From: Candidatus Doudnabacteria bacterium RIFCSPHIGHO2_02_FULL_43_13b
GTDB taxonomy: Bacteria > Patescibacteriota > Doudnabacteria > UBA920 > O2-02-FULL-48-8
Direction: 5' to 3'
Assembly: GCA_001777655.1 (NCBI GenBank)
Contig: MFER01000013.1
Coordinates: forward strand, 68,322-132,321
DNA: 64,000 bases
Below are positions 3,708-62,430 of the stretch, piece by piece. Every line of letters starts with the position of its first letter. Positions within the stretch are counted from its first letter, which is position 1. The notes beneath the pieces were generated by a model. That model was not told the DNA's origin. It made no database searches and saw nothing but the letters and a program-made list of their open reading frames with translations. A program made the position numbers and the translations under genes.

Positions 3708-3803
3708 ATTTTAAATGATTTATTTTTAATTTTGATTCAATTTCTAATATTTTAATATTAAAAATTCACTCGAAATTCAAAACTGAAAATTAAAAATTAT
3801 ATT

Positions 3804-4163
3804 ATGGCAAAACCAGAAACTAATCCAGAAACAATTGTCGCCGCTGGGATGCGGATCGAGGGGGAGCTTAAAAGCTCAGGCAATATCCGAATCGACGGCA
3901 TCGTCTCTGGTAAAATTCATACCTCACAAGATTTGATGGTCGGCCCAAATGCCCAAATCGACGCTGATTTGATTGCTGACAATGCTGTAATTGCTGGCGT
4001 GGTGAAAGGCAACATCACGGCGAAAGGATCAGTACTAATTTTAGAAACCGCCAAAATACTTGGCAACATCAGCTGTTTAAGTCTAGGGATTAAAGAAGGG
4101 GCATATTTCTCTGGCGCTTGTCGCATGAACGAGCCGAAGCCTACCGCAACCAATGGACAATAA
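3804..4163 (+). CDS. Bactofilin family cytoskeletal protein
   Basis: Beta-helical repeats IEGELKSSGNIRIDGIVSGKI..ADNAVIAGVVKGNITAKG characteristic of bactofilin (DUF583). Confidence 0.7.
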   Translation: MAKPETNPETIVAAGMRIEGELKSSGNIRIDGIVSGKIHTSQDLMVGPNAQIDADLIADNAVIAGVVKGNITAKGSVLILETAKILGNISCLSLGIKEGAYFSGACRMNEPKPTATNGQ

Positions 4164-5118: not shown

Positions 5119-5403
5119 TGGTGCCGCAGGTCAGAATCGAACTGACTACGCTCGCCTCTTCCAAAGGCTACTTGGACTATATCATCATCCTTTATAAAAA
5201 GGAGTTGGGCGCTGGTGCAGGGTTATTGTTGGGACTCACCTGCTAGTCTCTACACCTTACAGGAAACCTTCAGCCCTTCCTGCCTTGGCTCGGGATTGTC
5301 TTTTGCAAGAGTTCCCCCGAATTCACCCAATTTTTCTCAAGAACCATTACTGGTTCTGGCCCCAAAGATTTAGGGCGACGCTCTACCAATGAGCTACTGC
5401 GGC
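5119..5403 (-). tRNA. tRNA-Phe (anticodon GAA inferred) interrupted by a group I intron between U33 and G34
   Basis: 5' exon GCCGCAGTAGCTCATTGGTAGAGCGTCGCCCT; 3' exon GAAGAGGCGAGCGTAGTCAGTTCGATTCTGACCTGCGGCACCA. The spliced product is a canonical 75-nt cloverleaf with A73. Confidence 0.7.
5162..5371 (-). ncRNA. Group I intron (IC3-like, tRNA-intron type), about 210 nt
   Basis: P1 pairs exon CCCU with the guide sequence GGGG (U-G at the splice site). P10 pairs UCUUU with the 3' exon GAAGA. The intron ends in G. Core motifs CAAUCCCGAGCCAAG, GGUGUAGAGACUAGC and GAUAUAGUCCAAG match cyanobacterial tRNA-Leu introns. Confidence 0.7.
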
Positions 5404-9122: not shown

Positions 9123-9368
9123 CTAGTCATTCTTGAAACGTTCTTTGAGTATTTCTTTTTGTTGATGAGCCTTGAGAAATCTTTCGCGTCTCACTGCTTC
9201 GCCTCTAGTATTATAACTCTCGGAGCCTAGCAACTTCCAGGGTGCATAAGCCTTTGTAGATCTAACTGACTTATTATTGTGCCTTGCAATTCTGCTGCTG
9301 ATATTCTCACAAGATCCTATATAGAGATCCCCGTTTACTTGGCTTTTAAGAAAATAAACATGGTACAT
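9123..9368 (-). CDS. GIY-YIG nuclease family small protein
   Basis: YHVYFLKSQVNGDLYIGSCENISSRIARHN is a GIY-YIG motif; the gene sits next to the tRNA cluster. Confidence 0.7.
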   Translation of the reverse strand: MYHVYFLKSQVNGDLYIGSCENISSRIARHNNKSVRSTKAYAPWKLLGSESYNTRGEAVRRERFLKAHQQKEILKERFKND

Positions 9369-9561: not shown

Positions 9562-10218
9562 CTAGGCAGTTTTTTGCTTTCTATTATCGGCCAATTCTCT
9601 TTCGATATACCCTATCTTTCCAGCAACAGCAGCCCATTTATGATCTCTCCTTAGTATGTCTTTTTCAATACCAGTTATGGCCTGGCGCAAATCCTTCCGT
9701 CTGGTTTCTGAAGTGCTTTCATCGTCGATCATGGATTTAAAATCTCGAATCCGTTGTCTCTCTGATTCTTGCACTTCCATAAATTTTTGGTGTTCAGCTC
9801 TGAGAATAGATAATTGATATTCCAATGCTCCCACCCGTTCTTGGAAAAAAGCTGACGAATAAGCGGCATCTGAACTTCGCCCCGGAGCATCTCTAAACGA
9901 ATAAGTAGAACCATCGGGTGATTGAAGTTCATAATCTATTTTCATATCAACCCAATCCGTATCTCCCTTTTGCTGATGTCTATAATCTATTACTGGAACG
10001 ACGGTTTGAGCAGATTCGATATTTTTTCTGTCATTGGCCAATAAAGGGTTTCTTTGGCGGCCCTCACCATAACTAGCTAAGATATCTTTCCTAAGCTCTG
10101 ACAGCAATGCCGCCTGAAACCTAGCCACCTGCTCTGTAGATTCTCGTCCCGATTCTTGCCCTTCAGGAGTAGCAATCCCCATCTCTTCCGGGGATGGACC
10201 TAATGTGTCTCTACCCAT
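9562..10218 (-). CDS. Hypothetical protein with a coiled-coil C-terminus
   Basis: ORF with a downstream terminator AAAAAAACTGCCTATTGCTAGGCAGTTTTTT at 9545..9575. Confidence 0.4.
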   Translation of the reverse strand: MGRDTLGPSPEEMGIATPEGQESGRESTEQVARFQAALLSELRKDILASYGEGRQRNPLLANDRKNIESAQTVVPVIDYRHQQKGDTDWVDMKIDYELQSPDGSTYSFRDAPGRSSDAAYSSAFFQERVGALEYQLSILRAEHQKFMEVQESERQRIRDFKSMIDDESTSETRRKDLRQAITGIEKDILRRDHKWAAVAGKIGYIERELADNRKQKTA

Positions 10219-15914: not shown

Positions 15915-15999
15915 AATTTACAATTTTGATTGAATTTTCGAAATTTGAATATTTAATATTCATTCGAAATTCATAACTCAAAATTAAAAATTCACTTTC

Positions 16000-16662
16000 A
16001 TGCTCTACGTAGTGGCTACCCCCATCGGCAATTTACAAGACATAACCTTTCGCGCCCTGGAAGTCCTCAAGACTTCCGATTTCGTAATTGCGGAAAATCC
16101 CAAAAACAGCGGCTTGCTTTTGAAACATTTTCAAATTGACAAGCCCTTCAAACAATTTGCCGAACATAATGAGCAAAAAGCTCTCCCACCCTTAATCCTA
16201 CAACTTAAATCCCAAAACGGCGCCCTCATTACCGATGCCGGGACGCCAGGCATCTCAGACCCCGGTTTCAGGCTCGTCCGGGCCTGTGTGGAAGCGGGGA
16301 TTAAAGTTGTTCCGATTCCAGGAGCAAATGCGGCCATCAGTGCATTATCAGTTTCGGGGTTGCCTACGGATCGCTTTCTTTTTATTGGTTTTGCTCCTCG
16401 CACAGAAAACAAACTAATCAAAACAGTCTTACTGGGTAAAGACACGGAAAGCACAGTCATTTTCTACGAATCACCCTTTCGGATTGTCAAATCTTTAGAA
16501 TTTATCCAAAAACATTTCCCAGACTGTCATGTGGTCGTGGCCCGCGAAATCACGAAAGTCTACGAAGAATTCCTGCGAGGGGCGCCCTCGGAGATTCTGC
16601 CCAAGCTCACAAAAGAAAATACAAAAGGGGAATTTACAGTCCTTATATCTTTCAAAAAATAG
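16000..16662 (+). CDS. rsmI: 16S rRNA (cytidine1402-2'-O)-methyltransferase RsmI
   Basis: MLYVVATPIGNLQDITFRALEVLK tetrapyrrole-methylase fold. Confidence 0.85.
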   Translation: MLYVVATPIGNLQDITFRALEVLKTSDFVIAENPKNSGLLLKHFQIDKPFKQFAEHNEQKALPPLILQLKSQNGALITDAGTPGISDPGFRLVRACVEAGIKVVPIPGANAAISALSVSGLPTDRFLFIGFAPRTENKLIKTVLLGKDTESTVIFYESPFRIVKSLEFIQKHFPDCHVVVAREITKVYEEFLRGAPSEILPKLTKENTKGEFTVLISFKK

Positions 16663-16702
16663 ATGTACTCTAATCTGACCGATCGGTCAATGGTGAGTAC
16701 AT
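16663..16702. repeat. Nested palindrome ATGTACTC..GACCGATCGGTC..GAGTACAT
   Basis: 8-bp outer inverted repeat around a perfect 12-bp palindrome; the TGACCGATCGGTCA core recurs at 59207..59222. Confidence 0.6.
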
Positions 16703-28523: not shown

Positions 28524-29855
28524 ATGACAAACCAACAACTCTGGCAAGCAATCCTCGGCAACCTAGAACTAGCCATAAGTAAAGCTAGTTTTACTACTTG
28601 GTTTAAAAACACCTCAATTTTGGAAAAAACCGACTCCGCGATAATAGTAAATACCCCCAACGCTTTCACGAAAGAGTGGCTGCAGAACAAATACCACCAG
28701 GATATTCTGAAAGCCTTAAAATCAATCGCCCCAGAGATTAGAGAGGTTAAATTCCAAATCACCAACCCAACTTATGTTGCTCCTCAGGCTGCCAGAGAAA
28801 TCCCCAAAACTACCGTAAAACGACCTGAAAACCAAAGTCTTAACCCCAAATATACTTTTACCACCTTCATTGTTGGTTCGAACAACCAGCTCGCTCATGC
28901 CGCCAGCTTAGCAGTCAGCAAAAAACCAGGAACAGTCTATAATCCATTATTTATCTACGGCGGCGTCGGCTTAGGCAAAACGCATTTAATGCAGGCGGTT
29001 GGAACGGAAATTTTAAAAAAAGACCCTTCGACCAAAATTTTATACGTAACCAGCGAAAAATTTACCAATGATTTCGTCTCAGCCCTTTCGCAAGGTCGAG
29101 CAGATCAATTCAAGTCACTTTATCGAAACGTTGATGTATTGTTGGTGGACGATATCCAATTCCTAGCCGGGAAAGAAGGAACCCAAGAAGAATTTTTCCA
29201 CACTTTCAATGCTCTGCACCAAAATAATCGACAAGTGGTGATGACCTCTGATCGATTACCGAAAGAAATCCCCGCCATCGAAGAACGGCTAGTTTCTCGG
29301 TTTGAATGGGGGATGATCGCGGATATTCAGGCGCCCGACTTGGAAACACGAATCGCGATTTTAAAAACGAAGGCCAAGGAAAAAAATTACAACGTTGACC
29401 CGGAAATTTTAACCTATATTGCCGAAATTATTCAAAGCAATATTAGAGAATTGGAGGGAGCCCTAAACCGCTTGATGGTTTATTGCCAGCTCAATAACAC
29501 CAAGCCCACCATCGATCAGGTAAAAAGTGTGTTGGTTAACGTCATCACCCCACCCAAAAAACGCGGTGTCTCAGCCAAAAAAATCATAGAGGTAGTGTCT
29601 GATTTTTATAATGTTTCACCAGAAGACTTACTCAAACAATCGCGTAAAAAAGAGTATGTGAACCCCAGACAAATCGCAATGTATATCATCAGGAAAGAAT
29701 TAGAAACTTCCCTGCCTTCCATTGGTGAGTTTTTTGGTGGGCGCGACCATACAACAGTCATCCATGCCGTAGACAAGATTGAACGAATAATTAAAGAGAA
29801 AAATAGTTTAAAACAAGAGATTAATTTAATCAAAGATCGGTTATATTTGAATTAG
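28524..29855 (+). CDS. dnaA: Chromosomal replication initiator DnaA
   Basis: Walker A GGVGLGKTHL, box VII, and the C-terminal DnaA-box-binding HTH. Confidence 0.95.
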   Translation: MTNQQLWQAILGNLELAISKASFTTWFKNTSILEKTDSAIIVNTPNAFTKEWLQNKYHQDILKALKSIAPEIREVKFQITNPTYVAPQAAREIPKTTVKRPENQSLNPKYTFTTFIVGSNNQLAHAASLAVSKKPGTVYNPLFIYGGVGLGKTHLMQAVGTEILKKDPSTKILYVTSEKFTNDFVSALSQGRADQFKSLYRNVDVLLVDDIQFLAGKEGTQEEFFHTFNALHQNNRQVVMTSDRLPKEIPAIEERLVSRFEWGMIADIQAPDLETRIAILKTKAKEKNYNVDPEILTYIAEIIQSNIRELEGALNRLMVYCQLNNTKPTIDQVKSVLVNVITPPKKRGVSAKKIIEVVSDFYNVSPEDLLKQSRKKEYVNPRQIAMYIIRKELETSLPSIGEFFGGRDHTTVIHAVDKIERIIKEKNSLKQEINLIKDRLYLN

Positions 29856-35002: not shown

Positions 35003-36445
35003 TTAAAGATTACGTAAGAATTTTAAAGTTAGGTATACTCCCCAGCCAGTCGCACCCACTGTCAGGTGTTTTTTTGGTCGCATCGTCGAGGCCGTACCTG
35101 CAATGTCCAAATGAATCCAAGGGGTATTTTGCACGAAATGTTTTAAAAATAGCGCTGCCGTAATCACCCCCGCTAAGCCTTTTTCACCAACATTCTTCAA
35201 ATCAGCAACTTGGCTCTGGAGCTGATCTTGATACTCGGACACAAGCGGTAAGGGCCAGAGATTTTCGGCAGTGGCTAAGCTTGCTTGGTTTATTAATTTG
35301 TCATAAGTTTTGGTATTGGCAAAAAACCCGGTATATTCATCACCTAAAGCCACTAATACCGCCCCAGTTAAGGTGGCGTAGTCAATGATCAGTTTGGGTT
35401 GATAATGTTTTTTGGCAAAACTAATCGCATCCGCCAAAACTAGCCGGCCTTCTGCGTCAGTATTAATAATTTCTACGCTGGTTTTATCGTGAGCGACTAA
35501 AATATCGCCTGGTTTTAAAGCGGCGCCTGAGACCAAATTTTCTGCCGCTGGAATGATGGCGACCAGATGGCTTGAGAGTTTGAGCATGGCCGCCGCTTGC
35601 ATAACGCCAAGCACAGTTGCCCCGCCCGCCATGTCGAATTTCATTTCTTCCATTTTTTCGGCAGGTTTAATCGAGATCCCGCCGCTGTCAAATGTTAATC
35701 CTTTGCCAATTAAGACTATCGGTGGCTGTTTTTGATTCCCTGATTCTAAAATAATAAACCGAGGGGGTTCGTCAGAGCCCCGGGAGACTCCTAAAATTAG
35801 GCCTAATTTTTCCCTCATCATTTCTGATTCACCGAGGATTTTGTAATTTAGTTTATATTTTTTGGCAATGGTTATGGCGTGTTGGGCTAAGTGTTTCGGG
35901 GTCATGATGTTGCCTGGATGATTAGCCAAGTCCCGCGCTTGGTTGGTAGCCAGACCGATCATCCCTCCATCATTAAGAGCTGTTTTATAGCTTTTATTGT
36001 TCTGAATCACGATCTCTATTTGTTCAAAAGCTGGCGTTTTGTTGCCTTGTTTATAAATATTAAATTGGTAAGCACTATGCGTTACAGCAAAACCCGTAAG
36101 TTCCAAATAATTTGGGACCCAAGCTCGGTTGACGCTTGGCAGAAACAAACTGATTGATTTTGCTTGTAATTTTTGAGCGTTAGTGATGGCAGTATGGATG
36201 GCAATTCGCCAATTTTTTGCACCAAAATTTTGCTTCTTTCCCAAAGCGATTAATAACAGCCGAGCTGTCGGGGTATAGACGAGCAGACTATTGCCAATTT
36301 CATTTTTAAAATCAGCCAAAGCAGCTTCGGGTATTAAGAGTTTAGTTTTTTGCTTAACCGTCTTGGCTGCCTCCTCGTTTTCAAACAATGGAAAAACAAT
36401 CAGATCGGTTTTACTAGATAGTTTTGGATTGAGAGTAATTTTCAT
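35003..36445 (-). CDS. pepA: Leucyl aminopeptidase (M17)
   Basis: NTDAEGRLVLADA and the M17 catalytic-domain motifs. Confidence 0.85.
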   Translation of the reverse strand: MKITLNPKLSSKTDLIVFPLFENEEAAKTVKQKTKLLIPEAALADFKNEIGNSLLVYTPTARLLLIALGKKQNFGAKNWRIAIHTAITNAQKLQAKSISLFLPSVNRAWVPNYLELTGFAVTHSAYQFNIYKQGNKTPAFEQIEIVIQNNKSYKTALNDGGMIGLATNQARDLANHPGNIMTPKHLAQHAITIAKKYKLNYKILGESEMMREKLGLILGVSRGSDEPPRFIILESGNQKQPPIVLIGKGLTFDSGGISIKPAEKMEEMKFDMAGGATVLGVMQAAAMLKLSSHLVAIIPAAENLVSGAALKPGDILVAHDKTSVEIINTDAEGRLVLADAISFAKKHYQPKLIIDYATLTGAVLVALGDEYTGFFANTKTYDKLINQASLATAENLWPLPLVSEYQDQLQSQVADLKNVGEKGLAGVITAALFLKHFVQNTPWIHLDIAGTASTMRPKKHLTVGATGWGVYLTLKFLRNL

Positions 36446-36553
36446 CCCGATTAGAAATTTTGATTAGTTAATTATACGATTTAATTAGATTATTCCCGTT
36501 GAATACATTTTTCTTGGCAAAGATGCTTGTGAGTATTTCTAACGGGATTCATA

Positions 36554-37699
36554 TTATTGGGTTGAGGAAGGAGTTTCAGGGTTCGGAGTGGAGGGCTCGG
36601 TGACGGTTATTTTTTGGAACAGAGCAGGAGGGAGATAAGTGCTTTTGAAGGTTTGAGTAGTGGTTTGGTCATTCATAGTGACATGTCTAGTCCAGCTTGC
36701 TTTCATGGAGCCGTCTGGTTTTTGATCGAATTGGTATGGTCCTTCAAATACTACACTACGGTTATCTTTTGTGCCATAGAACTCAAAGTAGAGTTTACGA
36801 CCAACAATTTTGGTATGAATCAAAAAACTGCTCGGTAAGTTGTTAGTAAATTTTAAATCCAAGGCCCCCGGGTAGATCGTGGCATCGGAACCTTGTGGTG
36901 CGTAGTATTTTACGGCAAAAGAGTGATTCCGGCGAGCCGTAATCGGTAACCCCGCGTTCATCGCCGCTCGAAAAGCAGTGGTAGAGACTTGGCAGAGGCC
37001 TCCACCAAACTCTGGCACCAGGCCATCGGGTTTAATGACCAGCTCCGGCAAAAATCCGTGTTCCGCATCCACGTCGCCTAAAAATTTGTTGAAAGAAAAT
37101 TCTTCCAGGGGTTTAATAATCACTCCGTCGTATTTTTTTGAGCCGACGCTGATGTTATGAACCCGGTTAGCGGGAGAACCAGAGAAGTCCGACTCGCCTG
37201 CCGCCACTAATTCATTAATACCCAAGGTATTGGTTTGGGACAGTTTAATTTTTGGTTCTGAAATTAAAACCGGCAACCCAACAAGCAAGGCATCAGATTG
37301 CAAACTTTGGGCCAGAGAATAAATATCTAGGGCTTGTCCGTTTTGGCCTGGATTGAATTCTTCCGCCTTGCCGTTTTGCAAAATCAACTTGGCGTTTTCG
37401 GTTGATTGATTAATCTGGGCAGTTAAATCCTCGATTTGATTGATTGTGGCTGGGTCAAAAATTTTTCCTGGTTGTTCTAAATTTTTATCCAAAACTACCG
37501 AATTGATCAGACTAACTAGGGAAAAATCATTCCTAGTGTATGCTTGAGTAAGAAAATTAATACTATTAGTTTCAATTTCCCATTTTTTTTCACCAAAAAG
37601 TAAAGTTTTCCCAGAAACGATGGTAGGTAGGAGTAAAAGGGCAAGAACAATATTAAATTTTATGATTTTGGATCGTAACATTTCTGGTTTGGTTAGCAT
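36554..37699 (-). CDS. VanW-domain protein
   Basis: GGGLCQVSTTAFRAAMNAGLPITARRNHS matches the VanW core. Confidence 0.55.
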   Translation of the reverse strand: MLTKPEMLRSKIIKFNIVLALLLLPTIVSGKTLLFGEKKWEIETNSINFLTQAYTRNDFSLVSLINSVVLDKNLEQPGKIFDPATINQIEDLTAQINQSTENAKLILQNGKAEEFNPGQNGQALDIYSLAQSLQSDALLVGLPVLISEPKIKLSQTNTLGINELVAAGESDFSGSPANRVHNISVGSKKYDGVIIKPLEEFSFNKFLGDVDAEHGFLPELVIKPDGLVPEFGGGLCQVSTTAFRAAMNAGLPITARRNHSFAVKYYAPQGSDATIYPGALDLKFTNNLPSSFLIHTKIVGRKLYFEFYGTKDNRSVVFEGPYQFDQKPDGSMKASWTRHVTMNDQTTTQTFKSTYLPPALFQKITVTEPSTPNPETPSSTQ

Positions 37700-38081
37700 T
37701 GATTTTGATCGTGATGATTAGATCGCATCGGGTTTTTACTTTCGGAAAACGATCAACCCATTCGATCAGTACCACATTTTTTTCACCAAGAATTTCATCT
37801 AAACCCAAGACCGAAAGTTGGTCCAGTTTTTTCAGCCGATAAAAATCTAGATGAAATAAAACCCGGGAGTCGAACTTATATTGATGGATGACAACAAAAC
37901 TCGGACTGCTGATTTTTTGAATTCCCAAAGCCCGGGCAAAGGCTTTGACAAAGGTGGTTTTCCCAGCCCCCAAGGGGCCGATTAACCCAATCACATGGGC
38001 CTTTTTACGATACCTCATCCCTAGGCTTTTGCCTAGATTTTGAAATTGTTTTAGGCTTAAGTTTTTAAGCTTCATCGCCAT
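37653..38081 (-). CDS. tsaE: tRNA t6A biosynthesis ATPase TsaE
   Basis: LIGPLGAGKTTFVKAFARALGI P-loop. Confidence 0.8.
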   Translation of the reverse strand: MAMKLKNLSLKQFQNLGKSLGMRYRKKAHVIGLIGPLGAGKTTFVKAFARALGIQKISSPSFVVIHQYKFDSRVLFHLDFYRLKKLDQLSVLGLDEILGEKNVVLIEWVDRFPKVKTRCDLIITIKINANQTRNVTIQNHKI

Positions 38082-38082
38082 A

Positions 38083-38225
38083 CCCAGTATATCAACTTCG
38101 ATAAATGGTTTATTGGCTTTTGCATAAAATTAAAGTCTTTATTATAGATTTTTTGCTTAATCTATTATTATTAGTTTGATAATAAAACCATTTAGGGGCA
38201 AAAGCATCGAAGTTGTATTACTGGG
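38083..38225. mobile_element. MITE-like element A, copy 1 (about 143 bp, TIR CCCAGTATATCAACTTCGAT / ATCGAAGTTGTATTACTGGG)
   Basis: Near-identical inverted copy at 48128..48274. Terminal inverted repeats match at 18 of 20 positions. The element starts 1 nt from the tsaE start codon. Confidence 0.65.
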
Positions 38226-38282
38226 CTTATTTTAGCAGCTATTGACGACTTAGCCAAAACCAATTATAGTAATATGATTTAT

Positions 38283-38423
38283 GCCCGGTAGTAGAAATTT
38301 GATATTTATCCCGCGACTCGTGGGATAAATAAAAAACAACCGCGCGATAAAATTTCTTTGCTGGTTATAATAATCAAAGACAATTAGTAACTAATTTATT
38401 CTTTAATCAAATTTTCACTACCG
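38283..38423. mobile_element. MITE-like element B, copy 1 (TIR CCCGGTAGTAGAAATTTGAT / AAATTTTCACTACCGGG)
   Basis: Second copy at 47962..48057 with the same termini. It abuts the ATG at 38427 as ..CACTACCGGGTATG. Confidence 0.55.
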
Positions 38424-38426
38424 GGT

Positions 38427-39566
38427 ATGGAAATCACAGCTCAAATTACCTCAAAAATTTCACAGGCCGCCACAGTCTTGATTATTGTGGCAGGAGATAG
38501 CGGTGATAGCCTGGCCGCCGGTTTAGCATTGCAAGGATTTCTTAAAAAACTGGAGAAGGAAACCGCTGTTTTATCCTTCACCCCGAAATTGAACAAGCTA
38601 GATTTTTTGCAAGGATTTAGGGAGGCTCGGGAAGAGCTGGATGTGACCAAAAGTTTTGTCATTGACGTCTCAACCAAGCAGACGCAAATCGAGGAACTAA
38701 GTTATAAAAAAGAGGTTGATAAACTCTCGATTTTTATTAAACCTAAAAAAGGCCAATTCGAAAAAAATGACATTAGTTTCCGCAGTTCAAACTTTCCCTT
38801 CGATTTATTAATCATGATCGGGGTTGACTCGCTGGACCGTTTGGGGCAGCTTTATAATGAAAATACGGAATTATTTTTTGAAACCCCGATTTTAAATATC
38901 GATTTTAAGGCTACTAATGAAAATTTTGGGCAATATAATCTAGTGAATTTGACTGCCACTTCCAATTCGGAAATTGTGTTTGATTTAATCAACCACATTG
39001 AGGCTACCTTTATTGATGAAGCGATCGCGACTCAACTGTTAACCGGGATTATTTCCGAAACCGAAAGTTTCCAGCATGTTCGGACTACACCCCAAACTTT
39101 TCTCAAAGCTTCCCAGTTAGTCAGTTTAGGCGCCAACCAACAGGAAATTATCTCAAGGCTTTATAAGACGAAAAGTTTGGGGTTACTAAAGCTATGGGGC
39201 CGGGTTCTTGCTCGTCTGCAGCAGGCGCCAGAAATTTCTTTGGTTTATTCGTCAATTAATCAAACCGATCTAGAACGCTCACAGGCTTCGGAAGAAGACG
39301 TTCAGACTATTATCAAGGAAATGTCGATGCAGTTAGGGTTTGCCAAACTGTTTTTATTTTTTAAAGAAGACCAGTCCAACCAAACCTCTGTTTGGTGCCA
39401 CTCCACTCTGCCGGTTGATTTAAGACAAATTTTCGCCCAGTTTAAGCCCAAACTACTCGCTTACCAGACGACCTATTTTAGTTTGAACCAACCGTTATCT
39501 GAGGCGGAAAAACAAATCGTCTCGTTGCTAAAAAGTGACATTGCCAAATATAAATTGAACATGTAA
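38427..39566 (+). CDS. DHH/DHHA1-like phosphoesterase (NrnA-like), possibly degenerate active site
   Basis: NrnA-like architecture with VAGDSGDSLAAGLAL in place of HxNPDGDAxGS and NHI in place of DHH. Confidence 0.4.
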   Translation: MEITAQITSKISQAATVLIIVAGDSGDSLAAGLALQGFLKKLEKETAVLSFTPKLNKLDFLQGFREAREELDVTKSFVIDVSTKQTQIEELSYKKEVDKLSIFIKPKKGQFEKNDISFRSSNFPFDLLIMIGVDSLDRLGQLYNENTELFFETPILNIDFKATNENFGQYNLVNLTATSNSEIVFDLINHIEATFIDEAIATQLLTGIISETESFQHVRTTPQTFLKASQLVSLGANQQEIISRLYKTKSLGLLKLWGRVLARLQQAPEISLVYSSINQTDLERSQASEEDVQTIIKEMSMQLGFAKLFLFFKEDQSNQTSVWCHSTLPVDLRQIFAQFKPKLLAYQTTYFSLNQPLSEAEKQIVSLLKSDIAKYKLNM

Positions 39567-45959: not shown

Positions 45960-47960
45960 TTACTTGAAACTATGCCGCTTCATCCGTTGTTTTTGGCGGA
46001 TGGCTTGGATTTCATCCCGTAATTTGGCGGCTTGTTCGAAATCAAGATTGCGGGCGGCCAGATCCATCTGATCGCGCAGTTCTTCGATCGCATAAGCAAT
46101 TTCTTGCTTGGTCATTTTGGTCAGATCTCGTTGAGGGGTGAGGGGTGAGGGTTCGGGGGTGAGTTTTTGACCAGCAAGCCGAGATTCGCGAATTGCCTTT
46201 TCTATACCTTTGGGCGTGATGCCATGTTTTTTATTATAATCTTCTTGGATTTTACGGCGACGGAGGACTTCATCCGTGGCCCGCCGCATGGAACCCGTGA
46301 TTTTGTCAGCATACATAATTGCCTTGCCATCTAAATGTCTGGCTGCCCGACCCATGGTTTGGATAAGAGAGGTATCGGAGCGCAAAAATCCTTCCTTATC
46401 AGCATCAAGAATGGCAACCAGTGAAACTTCCGGCAAATCCAAGCCTTCTCGTAAAAGGTTGATCCCCACGACCACATCATAAACACCTATTCGCAAATCG
46501 CGCAAAATTTCCAACCGTTCTAGGGTCTCTACGTCAGAGTGCAGATAATGGACTTTTATCCCATATTCTGTCAGATAATTGGCCAATTCCTCGGCCATGT
46601 TTTTGGTCAAGGTAGTAACCAAGACGCGTTGGTGTTTTTTCACTCGAATTTGGATTTCCTCCATTAAATCATCAATCTGATTTTTCGTCGGCCGAATCTC
46701 GATCTTAGGATCCAACAGGCCGGTTGGTCGGATCAACTGCTCGGCGACTTGTTTTGAGATTTTAAGCTCGCGGTCTTTCACCGGGGTAGCAGAAACAAAA
46801 ATTGTCTGGCCGATTTTTTTCTCAAATTCCTCGAATTTTAAAGGCCGGTTATCGGCAGCAGACGGTAGGCGAAAACCGTAATCAATCAAAGTTTTTTTGC
46901 GGGATTGGTCGCCCAAATACATCCCACCGATTTGCGGCAGTGTCATGTGAGATTCGTCGATAAACAGCAGAAAATCGTCAGGGAAATAATCCAGCAGGGT
47001 AGATGGCGGTTCTCCGGCCTTACGAAAGTCTAGCTGCCGAGAGTAGTTTTCAATCCCTGAGACAAACCCTGTTTCCAGCATCATTTCGATATCGAAATTT
47101 GTTCGCTGCTCAATCCTTTGGGCTTCGAGTTCCTTTCCTTGTTTTTTGAAAAATTTAACCTGATCGGCAAGTTCCTTTCGGATATTGCCAATCGCCGCCA
47201 TTAGCTTTTCTCTCGGTGTGACGAAATGTTTAGCTGGAAAAATAGTATATTCATCCAAGGTCCCGAGATCTTGACCAGTCAGAGGATTGTGCTGGGAAAT
47301 TTTTTCCACCCTATCACCATCAAAATTAAACCGCAAGACCCAATCAGAGGAAGCGGGGATAATTTCGATGACGTCTCCTCTGACGCGGAACGTTCCGCGC
47401 TCTAAATTAATGTCGTTTCGTAAAAACTGCAGATCGGTTAAGCGCCGTAAAAATTTATCTCGCTTGAAAGTCTCACCAATCCTAACTGGAATTGATAATT
47501 CCAAATAATCGTCCGGGGAACCCAAGCCATAGATACACGAAACAGAAGCGACGATCAGGACGTCTTTGCGAGAAAGGAGGCTTTCGGTGGCGGCATTGCG
47601 CAATTTATCAATCTCTTCGTTAATTTCCGTTTCTTTTTCGATATAAGTGTCAGAGCGCGGGATATAGGCCTCCGGTTGATAGTAATCATAATAAGAGACA
47701 AAATAGTGCACAGCGTTATCTGGAAAGAAATTTTGAAACTCTGAGGCTAATTGCGCCGCTAAGGTTTTATTATGAGAAATGATTAAAGTTGGTTTTTGGA
47801 GTTTTTCGATAACGTTGGCCATGGTAAAAGTTTTACCTGAGCCTGTCACCCCCAAAAGCGTTTGGTAGCGGTATTTTTTGGCCAGACCCGCAACTAGTTT
47901 GTCGATGGCATCTGGTTGATCCCCCGCGGGTTTGAAATCGGAATGAATCTTAAACGGCAT
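45960..47960 (-). CDS. uvrB: Excinuclease ABC subunit B
   Basis: [12 protein letters not shown] Walker A, helicase motifs, C-terminal UVR domain. Confidence 0.95.
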
Positions 47961-47961
47961 A

Positions 47962-48057
47962 CCAGGTAGTAGAAATTTGATTAATGCTTAAATTTACTGC
48001 AAGGTGTTATATTAATCTGTTCGCGAAGCGAACAGATATGAAATTTTCACTACCTGG
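47962..48057. mobile_element. MITE-like element B, copy 2
   Basis: CCAGGTAGTAGAAATTTGAT...AAATTTTCACTACCTGG with the internal hairpin CTGTTCGCGAAGCGAACAG. It starts 1 nt from the uvrB start codon. Confidence 0.55.
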
Positions 48058-48127
48058 CATAGTAAATTTCATTGTAGCAGAAATTTGTTGCGGGTGTATA
48101 GACCAACAGAGTATAATACGTTTATGA

Positions 48128-48274
48128 CCCAGTAATACAACTTCGATGCTTTTGCCCCTAAATGGTTTTTGAATTAACCTTCATTAGTTATATGACTAAG
48201 AATACAGTTAATAATAATGGTTTTTTTAGCGCAAAAGCGCACACAAAAACCATTATCGAAGTTGATATACTGGG
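48128..48274. mobile_element. MITE-like element A, copy 2 (inverted relative to copy 1)
   Basis: Its reverse complement aligns along its length with 38083..38225. It ends ..GTTGATATACTGGG directly at the ruvA ATG. Confidence 0.65.
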
Positions 48275-48841
48275 ATGATTGGATCAATTAAAGGCAGGGT
48301 TTCCAACAAAGGCACAGGGTACGCCATCCTGGATACTGGCAGTGTTGGCTATAAGATTTTTATTACTCCCACGCTTTGGGCGACCTTGAAGTTAAATCAA
48401 GAGATTGTTTTAATGATTCATACTTATGTTCGAGAGGATCAGCTCACTTTATATGGATTTCCCAGTTTACCAGAACTAGAATTTTTTGAACTACTCCTGA
48501 CTGTTTCCGGCGTCGGACCCAAATCGGCTTTAGGGATCATGTCTTTAGCTTCGATTGAGATGATCAAATCAGCGATCGTGTCAGAGGATCCGTCGGTGTT
48601 TACTAAAGTATCAGGGATTGGCAGAAAAACGGCGGAACGCGTAATTTTGGAATTGAAAGAAAAACTAAAAGATGAATCGTCGTCAACTCCGGTCGCCAAA
48701 GAACATTCGGATGCGATGGACGCCCTGATCGCGCTGGGGTACACTCAACAACAAGCCCGGGAAGTCTTAAAAACTGTACCCAAAGATGTGGTGGATTTGC
48801 AGGCCAAAATTAAGATGGCATTGAAGAGTTTAAATAAGTAA
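48275..48841 (+). CDS. ruvA: Holliday junction DNA helicase RuvA
   Basis: MIGSIKGRV N-terminus and the HhH motifs VSGVGPKSALGI / VSGIGRKTAERVI. Confidence 0.9.
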   Translation: MIGSIKGRVSNKGTGYAILDTGSVGYKIFITPTLWATLKLNQEIVLMIHTYVREDQLTLYGFPSLPELEFFELLLTVSGVGPKSALGIMSLASIEMIKSAIVSEDPSVFTKVSGIGRKTAERVILELKEKLKDESSSTPVAKEHSDAMDALIALGYTQQQAREVLKTVPKDVVDLQAKIKMALKSLNK

Positions 48842-48879
48842 GCAGGAAGTAGTAATCAGTAAGTAGATACGTCACCGAT

Positions 48880-49195
48880 ATGAATCATGGATATCAAAAT
48901 TTGATTGTTTGGCAGAAATCAATGTTGGTTGTTAAGGGCGTCTATAAAATCACAGGAGAATTGCCTAAACAAGAACAGTATATTTTAGTTTCACAGATGC
49001 TAAGAGCGGCAATATCTATTCCGTCAAATATTGCTGAGGGATGGTCACGCTAACTGGAATCAAGAGTTTATACGATTTTTTGAAATAGCCTTTGCTTCGC
49101 CTGCGAGCTGGAAACTCAGTTATTGATATGTAAAGATCAATATCAAAAAATAGATTGTAGTTCTGTCGAAGCGATCCTCGTAGAGGTTAAAAAAT
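48880..49195 (+). pseudogene. Four-helix-bundle protein (23S rRNA IVS / Avd-like family) with two frameshifts
   Basis: Frame 1 gives MNHGYQNLIVWQKSMLVVKGVYKITGELPKQEQYILVSQMLRAAISIPSNIAEGWSR then a stop. The family consensus continues in other frames as NQEFIRFFEIAF.. and ELETQLLICKD... Confidence 0.6.
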
Positions 49196-49264
49196 GTTAA
49201 CGAGTCTTATTCAGAACAAAACAAGGGCCCGGTTCTGATTACTGCTTACTATTTACTGACTGCT

Positions 49265-50197: not shown

Positions 50198-50270
50198 TAA
50201 ACAGAAAACAGTAAGCAGTAATCAGAATTAGTTCCTGTTTCCTGATTACTATTTACTGCTTACTAAATTT

Positions 50271-58600: not shown

Positions 58601-58724
58601 AAGCGGTATACTAACGCCATGAATCCCGTTAGAAATTTCACATTGCGAGTTTATACTAAAAACACTCTCTGACGGGCTGATTATAAAGAAATTATTTATT
58701 AACTAATCAAAATTTCTAAACGGG

Positions 58725-59165
58725 ATGAATAAATACATCCAAGGAATTATCTTATTAATCTTGGTCGTTGCGGCAATCTTTTTGATTCCTAAGAAACAAG
58801 AACAGGCGCCACCAACCCAGGTTACTGACCAACAACCTCAAGCTATTCCAGAAGTGATTGTTGATACCCCGCAACCCAACGATGTGATCATAAGCCCAGT
58901 GACTGTGACTGGCCGCGCTCGTGGGTTTTGGTATTTCGAAGCCAATTTACCAGTGACGCTGAAAGATGGCAATGGCAATGTTTTGGCGCAAAAAGGTTTT
59001 CAGGCTATTGGAGATTGGATGACCACGGATCATGTGGATTTTTCTGACACTTTAATATTTATTACTCCGGCCACGCAATACGGCACTTTGATTATCAGTA
59101 AAGATAACCCGTCGGGCGAGCCGATCAACGACGCTGATTTCGTAGTCCCTATAAGATTTTGGTAA
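58725..59165 (+). CDS. Gmad2/GerMN-like immunoglobulin-fold secreted protein
   Basis: Signal-anchor, proline-rich linker, then VTVTGRARGFWYFEANLPVTLKDGNGNVL. Confidence 0.5.
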   Translation: MNKYIQGIILLILVVAAIFLIPKKQEQAPPTQVTDQQPQAIPEVIVDTPQPNDVIISPVTVTGRARGFWYFEANLPVTLKDGNGNVLAQKGFQAIGDWMTTDHVDFSDTLIFITPATQYGTLIISKDNPSGEPINDADFVVPIRFW

Positions 59166-59295
59166 AAATCCGCTCGGACACTGCTAAAAAATCTGAGATG
59201 TATGCACATTTGACCGATCGGTCAGCTAAGAGTACAAAAAGAAAAGCGGTTTAGTAGGTTAGATCCTGAAACGAGTTCAGGATGACGAATATTTT

Positions 59296-61845: not shown

Positions 61846-62430
61846 TTGAATATTTTCAAGCAATATATCCCAGATCAAGATAATATTTTATGGTTGTTGG
61901 AGGAGATAATTGAGAGCTTTGGATTAGATTGCTTCGTCGCCCCGCCATGGCGGGACTTCTCGCAAATGCGTAAAGATGCTTCTGCGAGGAGCGAAGCGAC
62001 GTGGCAGTCTAAAAAAGGCCTGCCCTTAGGCAACCTCACCTCCCAGCTCTTTATCAATCTCTATATGAATGAATTTGATCAATTCGTGAAGCACAAACTG
62101 AAACTTAAATACTATATCAGATACGCCGACGATTTTGTGTTCTTATCCGATACTAAGAATGACCTTACTGCAATACTGTCCCGTATTGCAGTATACTTGA
62201 ACGATGGGCTAAAACTATCGCTTCACCCTAACAAAATTATCCTCAAAACCTTTTCGTCTGGCCTTGATTTCTTAGGCTGGGTGAATTTCCCGCAGCATCG
62301 AGTCTTAAGAGCCGCGACGAAGCGGCGGATGATGAAAAAAGTCAATGAGAAAAACATATCGTCATATTTGGGGCTTCTAAAACATGGAAATACTCGTAAA
62401 ATTTCTACTTCAATTCCAAATTTGGTTTAG
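61846..62430 (+). CDS. Reverse transcriptase, DGR-type signature, N-terminally truncated (fingers motifs 1-3 absent), TTG start
   Basis: GLPLGNLTSQLFINLYMNEFDQFV has the [ILV]GxxxSQ motif diagnostic of DGR RTs, and YIRYADDFVFL is the YxDD catalytic motif. The ORF is only 194 aa, with a stop 21 nt upstream in frame. Confidence 0.65.
   Translation: MNIFKQYIPDQDNILWLLEEIIESFGLDCFVAPPWRDFSQMRKDASARSEATWQSKKGLPLGNLTSQLFINLYMNEFDQFVKHKLKLKYYIRYADDFVFLSDTKNDLTAILSRIAVYLNDGLKLSLHPNKIILKTFSSGLDFLGWVNFPQHRVLRAATKRRMMKKVNEKNISSYLGLLKHGNTRKISTSIPNLV
61926..62002. repeat. Palindromic repeat family 1 copy inside the RT ORF (GATTGCTTCGTCGCC..CTTCTCGCAAATGCG..CTGCGAGGAGCGAAGCGACG)
   Basis: Same arms as the other family 1 copies; translates in frame as LDCFVAPPWRDFSQMRKDASARSEAT between RT motif A remnants and motif B'. 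Confidence 0.65.

Follow-up and report, generated by a model that had tools for sequence, protein, structure and literature searches.

Miniature inverted-repeat elements at gene starts in a Candidatus Doudnabacteria genome, and their probable relation to small elements that encode a GIY-YIG nuclease

We analysed a 64,000-nucleotide (nt) stretch of DNA from Candidatus Doudnabacteria bacterium RIFCSPHIGHO2_02_FULL_43_13b (assembly GCA_001777655.1, contig MFER01000013.1, positions 68,322 to 132,321 of the forward strand), called the window below, in which two short repeats, A and B, occur together between divergent genes at two loci. Locus 1 lies between tsaE and a DHH-family phosphoesterase gene, and locus 2 between uvrB and ruvA. 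The original prediction, made at locus 2, had treated the repeats as an A/B module with opposite internal order at the two loci. We find that A and B do not form a module; rather, each is a miniature inverted-repeat transposable element, or MITE, that sits separately on a start codon. The features of locus 2 are as follows.

45960..47960, minus strand: uvrB (Pfam)
47958..47961 (left) and 48058-48061 (right): CATA, target-site duplication of B2
47962..48057, plus strand: B2, a 96-bp B-family MITE adjoining the uvrB start codon
47962-47981 and 48038-48057: terminal repeats of B2, 'GTAGTAG' type and 'GTAGTGA' type, respectively
48018..48036: hairpin CTGTTCGCGAAGCGAACAG inside B2
48058..48127: ancestral bidirectional promoter spacer of uvrB and ruvA, collinear with the intergenic region of the relative L010
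48100-48095 (TATACA) and 48076-48071 (TACAAT), minus strand: uvrB promoter, 18-nt spacing, called by a promoter scan
48088-93 (TTGCGG) and 48112-17 (TATAAT), plus strand: ruvA promoter, 18-nt spacing, followed by 6 nt and ATG, a leaderless arrangement
48124..48127 (upstream) and 48275-48278 (downstream): ATGA, target-site duplication of A2, the downstream copy holding the ruvA start codon
48128..48274, plus strand: A2, a 147-bp A-family MITE in gene-sense orientation, inverted relative to A1
48128-48147 and 48255-48274: distal end CCCAGTAATACAACTTCGAT and proximal end ATCGAAGTTGATATACTGGG of A2, the latter flush with the ruvA ATG at 48275
48275..48841, plus strand: ruvA (Pfam)

The predicted coordinates of B2 and A2, the hairpin in B2 and the inversion of A2 all hold in the sequence. 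The left CATA of B2 includes the uvrB start codon (minus-strand ATG, 47960-47958) and reads TATG on the uvrB strand. A clean empty site was found in L010, whose RuvA is 79% identical: the uvrB and ruvA start codons are just 62 bp apart there (CATAGCAAACTTTATTGTAGCAAAATTTGGTTGCGGGTGTATAGAGTCACAGGTATAATGCCTTTATGA), these 62 bp are collinear with window positions 48058..48127 and contain one CATA and one ATGA, and both B2 and A2 are absent. It follows that the 70 bp separating B2 from A2 represent the back-to-back promoter of the ancestor. The TTGCGG-18-TATAAT promoter that the original prediction had placed between the repeats is present and is conserved in the empty site, but it is the ancestral leaderless promoter of ruvA and not part of a module; its TATAAT-N6-ATG portion is kept in L010, L011 and L012. 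A simple promoter scan passed over this promoter, because its -35 box matches at only 3/6 positions, and called the divergent uvrB promoter TATACA-18-TACAAT instead. The uvrB-ruvA spacer is identical across nine contigs of the same population.

Locus 1 has the following features.

37653..38081, minus strand: tsaE (Pfam)
38083..38225, minus strand: A1, a 143-bp A-family MITE with its proximal end towards tsaE
38229..38279: ancestral promoters, divergent: plus strand, TTGACG-17-TATAGT (38242-38270); minus strand, TTGGCT-17-TAAAAT (38257-38229)
38280-83 and 38426-29: TATG, target-site duplication of B1
38284..38425, plus strand: B1, a 142-bp B-family MITE adjoining the start codon of the DHH-family phosphoesterase gene, with the hairpin TCCCGCGACTCGTGGGA inside
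38427..39566, plus strand: DHH-family phosphoesterase gene, named via homologues

The product of 38427..39566 has no Pfam match of its own; PF01368 is present in its homologues, which go by names such as DHH family phosphoesterase or nanoRNase. A1 is flanked by CATA (38079-82) and CTTA (38226-29), which agree at 3/4 positions. The spacer between tsaE and the phosphoesterase gene measures 111-114 bp in the relatives L171 and L172, as against 345 bp in the window, and neither A1 nor B1 is found there. B1 is absent from L011, L171 and L172, in all three of which the TTGACG-17-TATAxT promoter core is kept. The boundaries at this locus are less clean than at locus 2, in that relatives have 25-40 nt of extra leader 5′ of the phosphoesterase gene, and, seen beside L171, the second ATG seems to be where tsaE really begins. 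A conserved mini-open reading frame (mini-ORF) starting ATGATTAT was observed a few bases 3′ of the -10 box of the phosphoesterase promoter, in the window (38271..38283) and in three relatives (L011, ~75-100; L171, ~2949-2965; L172, ~2972-2990). It may be a leaderless upstream ORF, which in the window now reads into B1.

Independent insertion of the elements had been proposed in the original prediction from the opposite orders (A-B in locus 1, B-A′ in locus 2), which are as claimed, and this conclusion is almost certainly right, as is the identification of the elements as MITEs. Every element possesses a separate pair of terminal inverted repeats and a separate 4-bp duplication, the A-to-B spacers of the two loci show no relation to each other (54-56% identity), and in relatives both loci are unoccupied. 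In the window, both ends of A1 and both ends of A2 match the A terminal repeat CCCAGTAWAYMAACTTCGAT, giving four occurrences where 0.03 would be expected; the B terminal repeat CCNGGTAGTAGAAATTTGAT is likewise present four times (expected, 0.02). The long alignments that had been anticipated between the loci were obtained for A over its full length, A1 and the reverse complement of A2 being 79.5% identical end to end and 72% identical in their interiors (shuffle maximum, 59%). B1 (142 bp) and B2 (96 bp), on the other hand, have only their ~20-24-nt ends in common, and their interiors are 42% identical, which is the shuffle level; the B family is thus defined by its ends and not by a conserved 96-bp sequence. 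The inversion of A at locus 2 follows a rule that holds throughout the family, namely that the GATATACTGGG end points towards the gene. Both divergent promoter regions have two start codons, each of which received a single element.

The A family was surveyed by an exact-pattern scan of one genome per species, in which one exact end was required and which matched 39 loci. Together with the window these gave 37 complete copies of 105-149 bp, almost all hosted by Doudnabacteria (at least 8 assemblies), while a few carry the labels Saccharibacteria, Azambacteria or others. The asymmetric ends do not vary between copies, with CCCAGTAATACAACTTCGAT distal and ATCGAAGTTGATATACTGGG proximal to the gene; the 20-nt arms pair at 17/20 positions (7 bp, a 3x3 mismatch and 10 bp), and conserved subterminal modules enclose an AT-rich variable core. 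Most copies show a 4-base duplication, which is ATGA in ~10, NATG in ~7, TTGA/TCAA in 4 and CCTA in 3, the last representing one orthologous site common to three species. The proximal side is flush with the start codon of an ORF measuring 60 codons or more in 18/37 copies and the distal side in none, an excess with p = 2e-25 under the null that a random tolerated 4-bp target has a start codon in ~1.2% of cases, and an orientation bias with p = 8e-6. At roughly half of these start-codon sites, compared with 14% of random ATGs, a -10 box stands at leaderless distance from the upstream ATG copy. Near-identical A copies at different sites of one genome (L017, L024) indicate recent movement. Viral contigs scanned with the A end gave no match.

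The B family was surveyed by a metagenome scan that again required one exact end and recovered at least 119 loci. Among the B matches listed, to which the counts for this family refer, there were 81 paired copies, mostly of 120-140 bp, of which 66 were non-redundant and could be oriented by the dinucleotide that tells the ends apart (GTAGTAG versus GTAGTGA). Only the ends are conserved among these 66 copies, the 20-nt arms being complementary at 18/20 positions. The duplications, visible in most copies, are most often CATA (19 copies), GAGG (9, plus near-variants) and TATG (5), and an ORF starts within 16 nt of one end in 56/66 copies, ORFs having been called in both surveys by a simple procedure. 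Copies on Shine-Dalgarno sequences turn the GTAGTGA end towards the gene in a ratio of 28:1, whereas copies on start codons turn the GTAGTAG end towards it, 23:4 (contrast between the classes, Fisher p = 1.4e-10). Where a Shine-Dalgarno sequence is duplicated, the upstream copy is often degraded and the gene-proximal copy intact. An exact protein look-up on B copies named one host, Patescibacteria group bacterium.

Two copies in the window and four elsewhere, likewise on start codons, belong to a third family of MITEs, C, whose ends, CCCG(A)TTAGAAATTT, are similar to those of B.

35003..36445, minus strand: leucyl aminopeptidase gene
36446..36546, minus strand: C1, adjoining the start codon of the leucyl aminopeptidase gene
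58625..58724, plus strand: C2, with ATGAAT on both flanks, between a TATACT-N6-ATG promoter and the ATG at 58725

The window copies are flanked by ATGAAT/ATGAA[AT] and those elsewhere by ATTCAT or GTTGAC on both sides, which suggests duplications of 6 bp. A and B are new MITE families of unusual site and orientation specificity, and they point to a candidate for a new kind of very small transposon. Full-text searches of open-access papers found no paper on MITEs of the Candidate Phyla Radiation (CPR)/Patescibacteria and none on GIY-YIG genes bounded by terminal repeats with duplications.

The feature that unites the four A and B insertions of the window is that each used a 4-bp target containing or adjoining a start codon and duplicated it, with the consequence that the gene keeps an ATG flush with the element while the second copy stays by the old promoter. 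Many genes in the window have TATAAT or TATACT 6 nt before the ATG and no Shine-Dalgarno sequence, the signature of leaderless mRNA, and others have GGAGG. The uvrB, ruvA, tsaE and phosphoesterase ORFs are all intact and retain their ancestral N-termini. Transcripts reading through from the old promoter would carry the element as a hairpin leader of 100-150 nt; as such leaders, the window copies have predicted folds of -35 to -52 kcal/mol (z = -6.9 to -8.5; B2, -35.3 kcal/mol, z = -7.3; A2, -48 kcal/mol, z = -7.7; B1, z = -8.5), in which the start codon lies at the foot of the stem without a Shine-Dalgarno sequence. Translation behind the elements might depend on processing of the hairpin, on internal promoters in some copies or on initiation that does not need a Shine-Dalgarno sequence. 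About 10 of the 37 A copies contain a promoter-like TTGAtA-N16-18-TATGAT sequence in sense at a fixed position. Neither window copy has it, and B copies show no directional enrichment of internal promoters, so that internal promoters do not explain the orientation generally.

Three other candidate explanations were rejected. The motif GATATACT in the A proximal end equals the native -10 motif, but it lies 3-4 nt from the ATG rather than the native 6 nt, and was discarded as a source of leaderless transcripts. Coupling to an upstream mini-ORF, or in-frame fusion, gives M-T-Q-stop for A2 and variable ORFs for B, with no consistent frame or stop position. Replication direction fails to account for the orientation, as dnaA has both A1 and A2 to one side of it, yet the two point in opposite directions; dnaA itself is at 28524..29855, and the window probably spans the replication origin region.

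Longer elements with B-type ends provide the link to a possible mobilising enzyme. Such elements bear an ORF at four loci, L057 and its twin L097 (423 bp) and L106 and L142 (317 bp), and this ORF encodes a GIY-YIG domain alone, of 86-87 amino acids (aa), matching PF01541 with E = 1e-15 to 3e-17. Altogether we found seven lineages of elements of 312-423 bp whose sole ORF is the gene for a single-domain GIY-YIG nuclease of 86-90 aa, including the following.

L173:776-1087: 312 bp, TATG/TATG, at the start codon of a pilB-like gene, 1 nt past the upstream stop
L188:682-994: 313 bp, TATG/TATG, at the start codon of a pilin gene
L198:676-988: 313 bp, TATG/TATG, behind TACACT-N6-ATG
L183:777-1092: 316 bp, AAAA/AAAC, within the first codons of a gene
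L186:776-1092: 317 bp, after GGAGGtaaaATGAA

All seven lineages, with every additional homologue for which flanking DNA was retrieved, are laid out as an end, 4-5 nt, the ORF from ATG to stop, and an end, and in all of them the nuclease ORF is co-directional with the downstream host gene. The duplications of the GIY-YIG elements are GAGG, ATGA and, in three cases, TATG. The nucleases are 60-78% identical, with invariant Tyr, Tyr-x-Gly, Arg, His, Asn and Glu residues, and the end sequence varies by lineage; in L198 the GTAGTAG and GTAGTGA ends are arranged opposite to those of the other six lineages, as in the swap between Shine-Dalgarno and leaderless sites. In L183 a new ATGA start overlaps the stop codon of the nuclease, and translation of the host protein takes in the right end, in frame. 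The annotated start of the host gene was observed inside the element in both L183 and L186, with its ATG overlapping or preceding the nuclease stop and the right terminal repeat forming a new host N-terminus. Homologues of the nuclease are named from Berkelbacteria, Nealsonbacteria and Parcubacteria/Patescibacteria, and a profile of the nucleases matched 4070 cluster representatives at E <= 1e-10. The solved structures nearest to the nucleases are the UPF0213 proteins 1zg2 and 1ywl, and in NCBIfam the only matches, to the group I intron endonuclease model TIGR01453, stayed below threshold (16-27 bits, cut-off 56).

The ends of the B MITEs retain what appear to be remnants of this ORF. Next to the ATCAAATTTTCAC (GTAGTGA-type) end, B copies have a subterminal GAAAAAT(T/A) that corresponds to the last bases of the ORF, and next to the other end they have nAAT, corresponding to its first bases, which is the pattern expected of internal-deletion derivatives. 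B is thus probably derived from the GIY-YIG elements. The distal end of A matches B-type ends at 13-14/20 positions without gaps (for random 20-mers of the window, P(>=14) = 7.5e-5), and from this similarity we infer that A, too, may be a deletion derivative of such elements.

The window contains a GIY-YIG gene of its own, which could encode a trans-acting factor for the elements.

9123..9368, minus strand: resident GIY-YIG gene, 81 aa, single-domain, 37-41% identical to the nucleases of the B-type elements

The GIY-YIG gene itself lies right next to tRNA-Cys. Upstream of the GIY-YIG gene, to ~9460, we observed two hairpins, of which one is NTS-like (GATCCCGCGTAGCGGGAC) and the other reads TCTCGCTTCGCGAGA, as well as a stretch resembling the 5′ half of a tRNA (GGCCTGGTAGCCAAGGGGTAAGGC). 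The interval 9123..~9460 may represent an interrupted tRNA gene or an Ssn-type locus.

We consider it likely that the distribution of A and B reflects insertions that duplicate initiation signals, by elements that originate from GIY-YIG elements. According to this model, the GIY-YIG ORF, which has no room for a promoter of its own, would rely on host transcription from a promoter just upstream, and such reliance would explain both the sense orientation and the position just behind promoters. The duplication would regenerate an ATG or a Shine-Dalgarno sequence for the host gene, the gene-proximal copy being the one in use, and the insertion would therefore stay tolerable. The MITEs would be mobilised in trans. 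We suggest, more tentatively, that the GIY-YIG nuclease itself may be the transposase. It is somewhat more speculative still that the elements belong to an undescribed CPR transposon superfamily, with autonomous members of ~312-317 bp composed of 20-bp inverted ends and an ~88-aa Ssn-like nuclease as the mobilising enzyme, capable of strand-specific homing to initiation sites. If this were true, they would to our knowledge be the smallest autonomous DNA transposons, driven by a class of nuclease that we do not know as a transposase.

Several points weigh against this model. We know of no GIY-YIG nuclease that makes the 4-nt staggered cut implied by a 4-bp duplication, and the elements could be moved by an unseen transposase, with the nuclease as their cargo. 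No element with A-type ends was found to carry an ORF, and in this genome none with A-type or B-type ends; the resident GIY-YIG gene (9123..9368) lacks B-type terminal repeats. The duplication of A1 is imperfect (CATA/CTTA), and the interiors of B copies are largely non-homologous, which is unusual for MITEs derived from one master copy. Finally, because one exact end was needed for a match, copy numbers and site frequencies are biased towards conserved copies, though the sample was blind to the flanks.

One alternative, which we think rather unlikely, is that the MITEs are moved by a conventional DDE transposase that was not seen, for example an enzyme like those of IS1380/piggyBac (CC...GG ends, 4-bp duplication), and that the GIY-YIG gene of the long versions is only a passenger. 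Terminal inverted repeats together with a duplication of fixed length are the hallmark of DDE cut-and-paste elements, and the nuclease has no DNA-binding domain. In addition, MITEs with ORFs unrelated to transposases are known (PMC3184786). However, no pair of A-, B- or C-type ends 600-3500 bp apart was present in the ~1 Mb of DNA fetched, the unpaired B ends proved to be MITEs with a degenerate second end next to large ORFs that are host genes, and Pfam scans of 20 ORFs of the window found no transposase domain. Moreover, in the seven diverged lineages the ORF takes up the whole element apart from a linker of 4-5 nt, and the ends vary in step with the protein lineage.

It is similarly doubtful that the bias in site and orientation arose purely from selection after near-random insertion into compact genomes, with no targeting and with survival only of those insertions that restore the initiation signal. 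In keeping with this idea, the window is 85% coding, the duplications are not one sequence (A also has CCTA, TCAA, TTGA, CACG and AGAG), and three families that differ both in their ends and in the length of the duplication (4 bp in A and B, apparently 6 bp in C) occupy the same kind of site. Yet insertions behind the 3′ ends of genes should be at least as harmless and are in the minority, and none of the 126 purely intergenic TATG/CATA/ATGA/TCAT sites of the window is occupied. Parting a leaderless ATG from its promoter should carry a cost rather than be neutral, and the 28:1 ratio of GAGG to CCTC suggests a strand-specific step.

It is very improbable that A and B are conserved cis-regulatory leaders, acting as RNA hairpins or protein-binding palindromes, and not mobile DNA. 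The very stable predicted folds, the exact 5′ leader position with its fixed orientation and the promoter-like sequence at a fixed position in ~10/37 A copies would suit such a role, but the elements are missing at orthologous loci of relatives in which the genes and promoters are conserved, the host genes are functionally unrelated, target duplications flank the elements and the interiors of B vary. They also lack a match in Rfam: in the region 47900-48330, Rfam 15 gave none at the gathering score, the best two (E = 0.64 and 0.89) lying far below it. RNA covariation is uninformative here, since the consensus fold consists of the invariant end stem alone. Last, the occurrence of one A and one B within ~350 bp at both loci might suggest that locus 2 is a segmental duplication or recombination product of a ready-made module from locus 1, but this is excluded by the separate duplication of every element, the unrelated spacers and B interiors, and the fact that each spacer is the ancestral promoter of its own locus, conserved in relatives.

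Our preferred explanation, insertion of MITEs that derive from GIY-YIG elements, can be compared with several known systems. Bacterial MITEs such as the Correia elements of Neisseria and Nezha of cyanobacteria are under 200 bp, have inverted repeats and duplications and lack a transposase ORF, and the mobility of Nezha was demonstrated by filled and empty orthologous sites (PMC3184786). A and B resemble them in being small (96-147 bp in the window), multi-copy and without a transposase ORF, in their stable RNA fold and in their filled and empty sites, as well as in lying 5′ of genes, where MITEs are often found and co-transcribed (PMC3184786). They differ from Correia and Nezha in their unrelated end sequences, in a CPR host with leaderless genes, and in their extreme preference for initiation signals and strict orientation. 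They differ from other MITEs in that their sole ORF-bearing relatives encode a GIY-YIG nuclease instead of a DDE transposase. Correia elements have 26-bp ends, a TA duplication and a Neisseria host, whereas A and B have a 4-bp duplication on ATG or GAGG and a Candidatus Doudnabacteria host. [quoted passage not shown] A and B, unlike REP2, carry no initiation signals and duplicate those of the host instead.

For the nuclease, the closest described system is Ssn/NTS, in which single-domain GIY-YIG site-specific single-stranded DNA nucleases are encoded by genes flanked by NTS/SRM hairpin repeats (PMC11893778, Nat Commun 2025). Members of the Ssn family (~90-110 aa, CDD cd10448) occur in an NTS-ssnA-NTS arrangement that the authors liken to an insertion sequence, and their text contains neither the term 'target site duplication' nor a mention of CPR bacteria (PMC11893778). 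The nucleases of the B-type elements are similar in consisting of GIY-YIG alone, at ~90 aa, and in having flanking inverted repeats that are also present in many ORF-less copies; the comparison was made by length and PF01541-only architecture and covers the long elements and 9123..9368, not A2 or B2. Hairpins resembling the NTS core (TTCCCGCGMAVGCGGGAA) are found inside B1 (TCCCGCGACTCGTGGGA) and upstream of the resident GIY-YIG gene (TCCCGCGTAGCGGGA). In contrast to NTS, however, the B-type flanks are 20-bp ends that are mutually inverted at exact boundaries and not self-folding 28-nt hairpins, and the B-type elements are set apart from Ssn/NTS by clean 4-bp duplications, empty sites and positions at start codons and Shine-Dalgarno sequences.

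Two further groups are similar in part. IS200/IS605 elements and the derived REP/BIME sequences use an HUH Y1 transposase, insert 3′ of a fixed tetra- or pentanucleotide and have neither terminal inverted repeats nor target duplications. IS200/IS605 elements are like A and B in that a small nuclease goes with numerous derivatives lacking an ORF, and in that they insert next to a short target with strand and orientation specificity, but A and B have terminal repeats and duplications, and their duplicated tetramers vary. Homing endonucleases such as I-TevI and Seg, whether free-standing or intron-borne, are proteins of ~200-250 aa with a DNA-binding domain, which spread by repair-based copying into one cognate allele. 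The nucleases of the B-type elements share with them the GIY-YIG catalytic domain and selfish behaviour; homing endonuclease genes, unlike the B-type elements, lack terminal repeats and do not generate duplications at a range of unrelated sites.

Other repeats and insertions were observed in and around the window. A degraded gene cassette for a 23S_rRNA_IVP (four-helix-bundle) protein (48842..49264 and 50203..50264) lies between ruvA and a FemAB-family gene, is bounded by the inverted repeats AGTAAGCAGGAAGTAGTAATCAG and CTGATTACTGCTTACT, and has a solo hairpin of the same repeat 3′ of the FemAB gene; L010 lacks the cassette, and ruvA and the FemAB-family gene overlap there. In L012, a gene with a PaaX_M domain is inserted between uvrB and ruvA, bracketed by palindromic repeats (9290..9330 and 9880..9920) similar to the ~41-nt palindromic repeats (GTAYAC ... 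TGACCGATCGGTCA ... GTRTAC type) that lie just past gene ends in the window at 16661..16701 and 59196..59236. A 77-nt direct repeat, 83% identical between its copies (3722..3798 and 15916..15992), ends a few bases 5′ of the ATGs at 3804 and 16000. A group I catalytic intron (5152..5381, minus strand; Rfam RF00028, 66.7 bits, above the gathering score) is situated between tRNA-Gly and tRNA-Val and may interrupt a tRNA gene that was missed by ARAGORN. A 194-aa ORF (61846..62430, plus strand) has a partial reverse-transcriptase domain (PF00078, E = 2.6e-12) and may be the remnant of a group II intron or another retroelement.

These findings mean that blocks of 100-150 bp found 5′ of many CPR genes are insertions and not native leaders, and that the true promoters lie beyond them; models of gene starts and promoters for CPR organisms should allow for such insertions. 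At uvrB, ruvA and tsaE, a leaderless start codon now stands behind a stable hairpin with no Shine-Dalgarno sequence, which constitutes a natural experiment on the gain of a leader. The 312-317-bp elements whose only gene is a GIY-YIG nuclease offer a concrete system in which to ask whether a single-domain GIY-YIG enzyme can drive transposition. If the nuclease is the mobilising enzyme, this would also answer whether the Ssn/NTS architecture is a mobile element.

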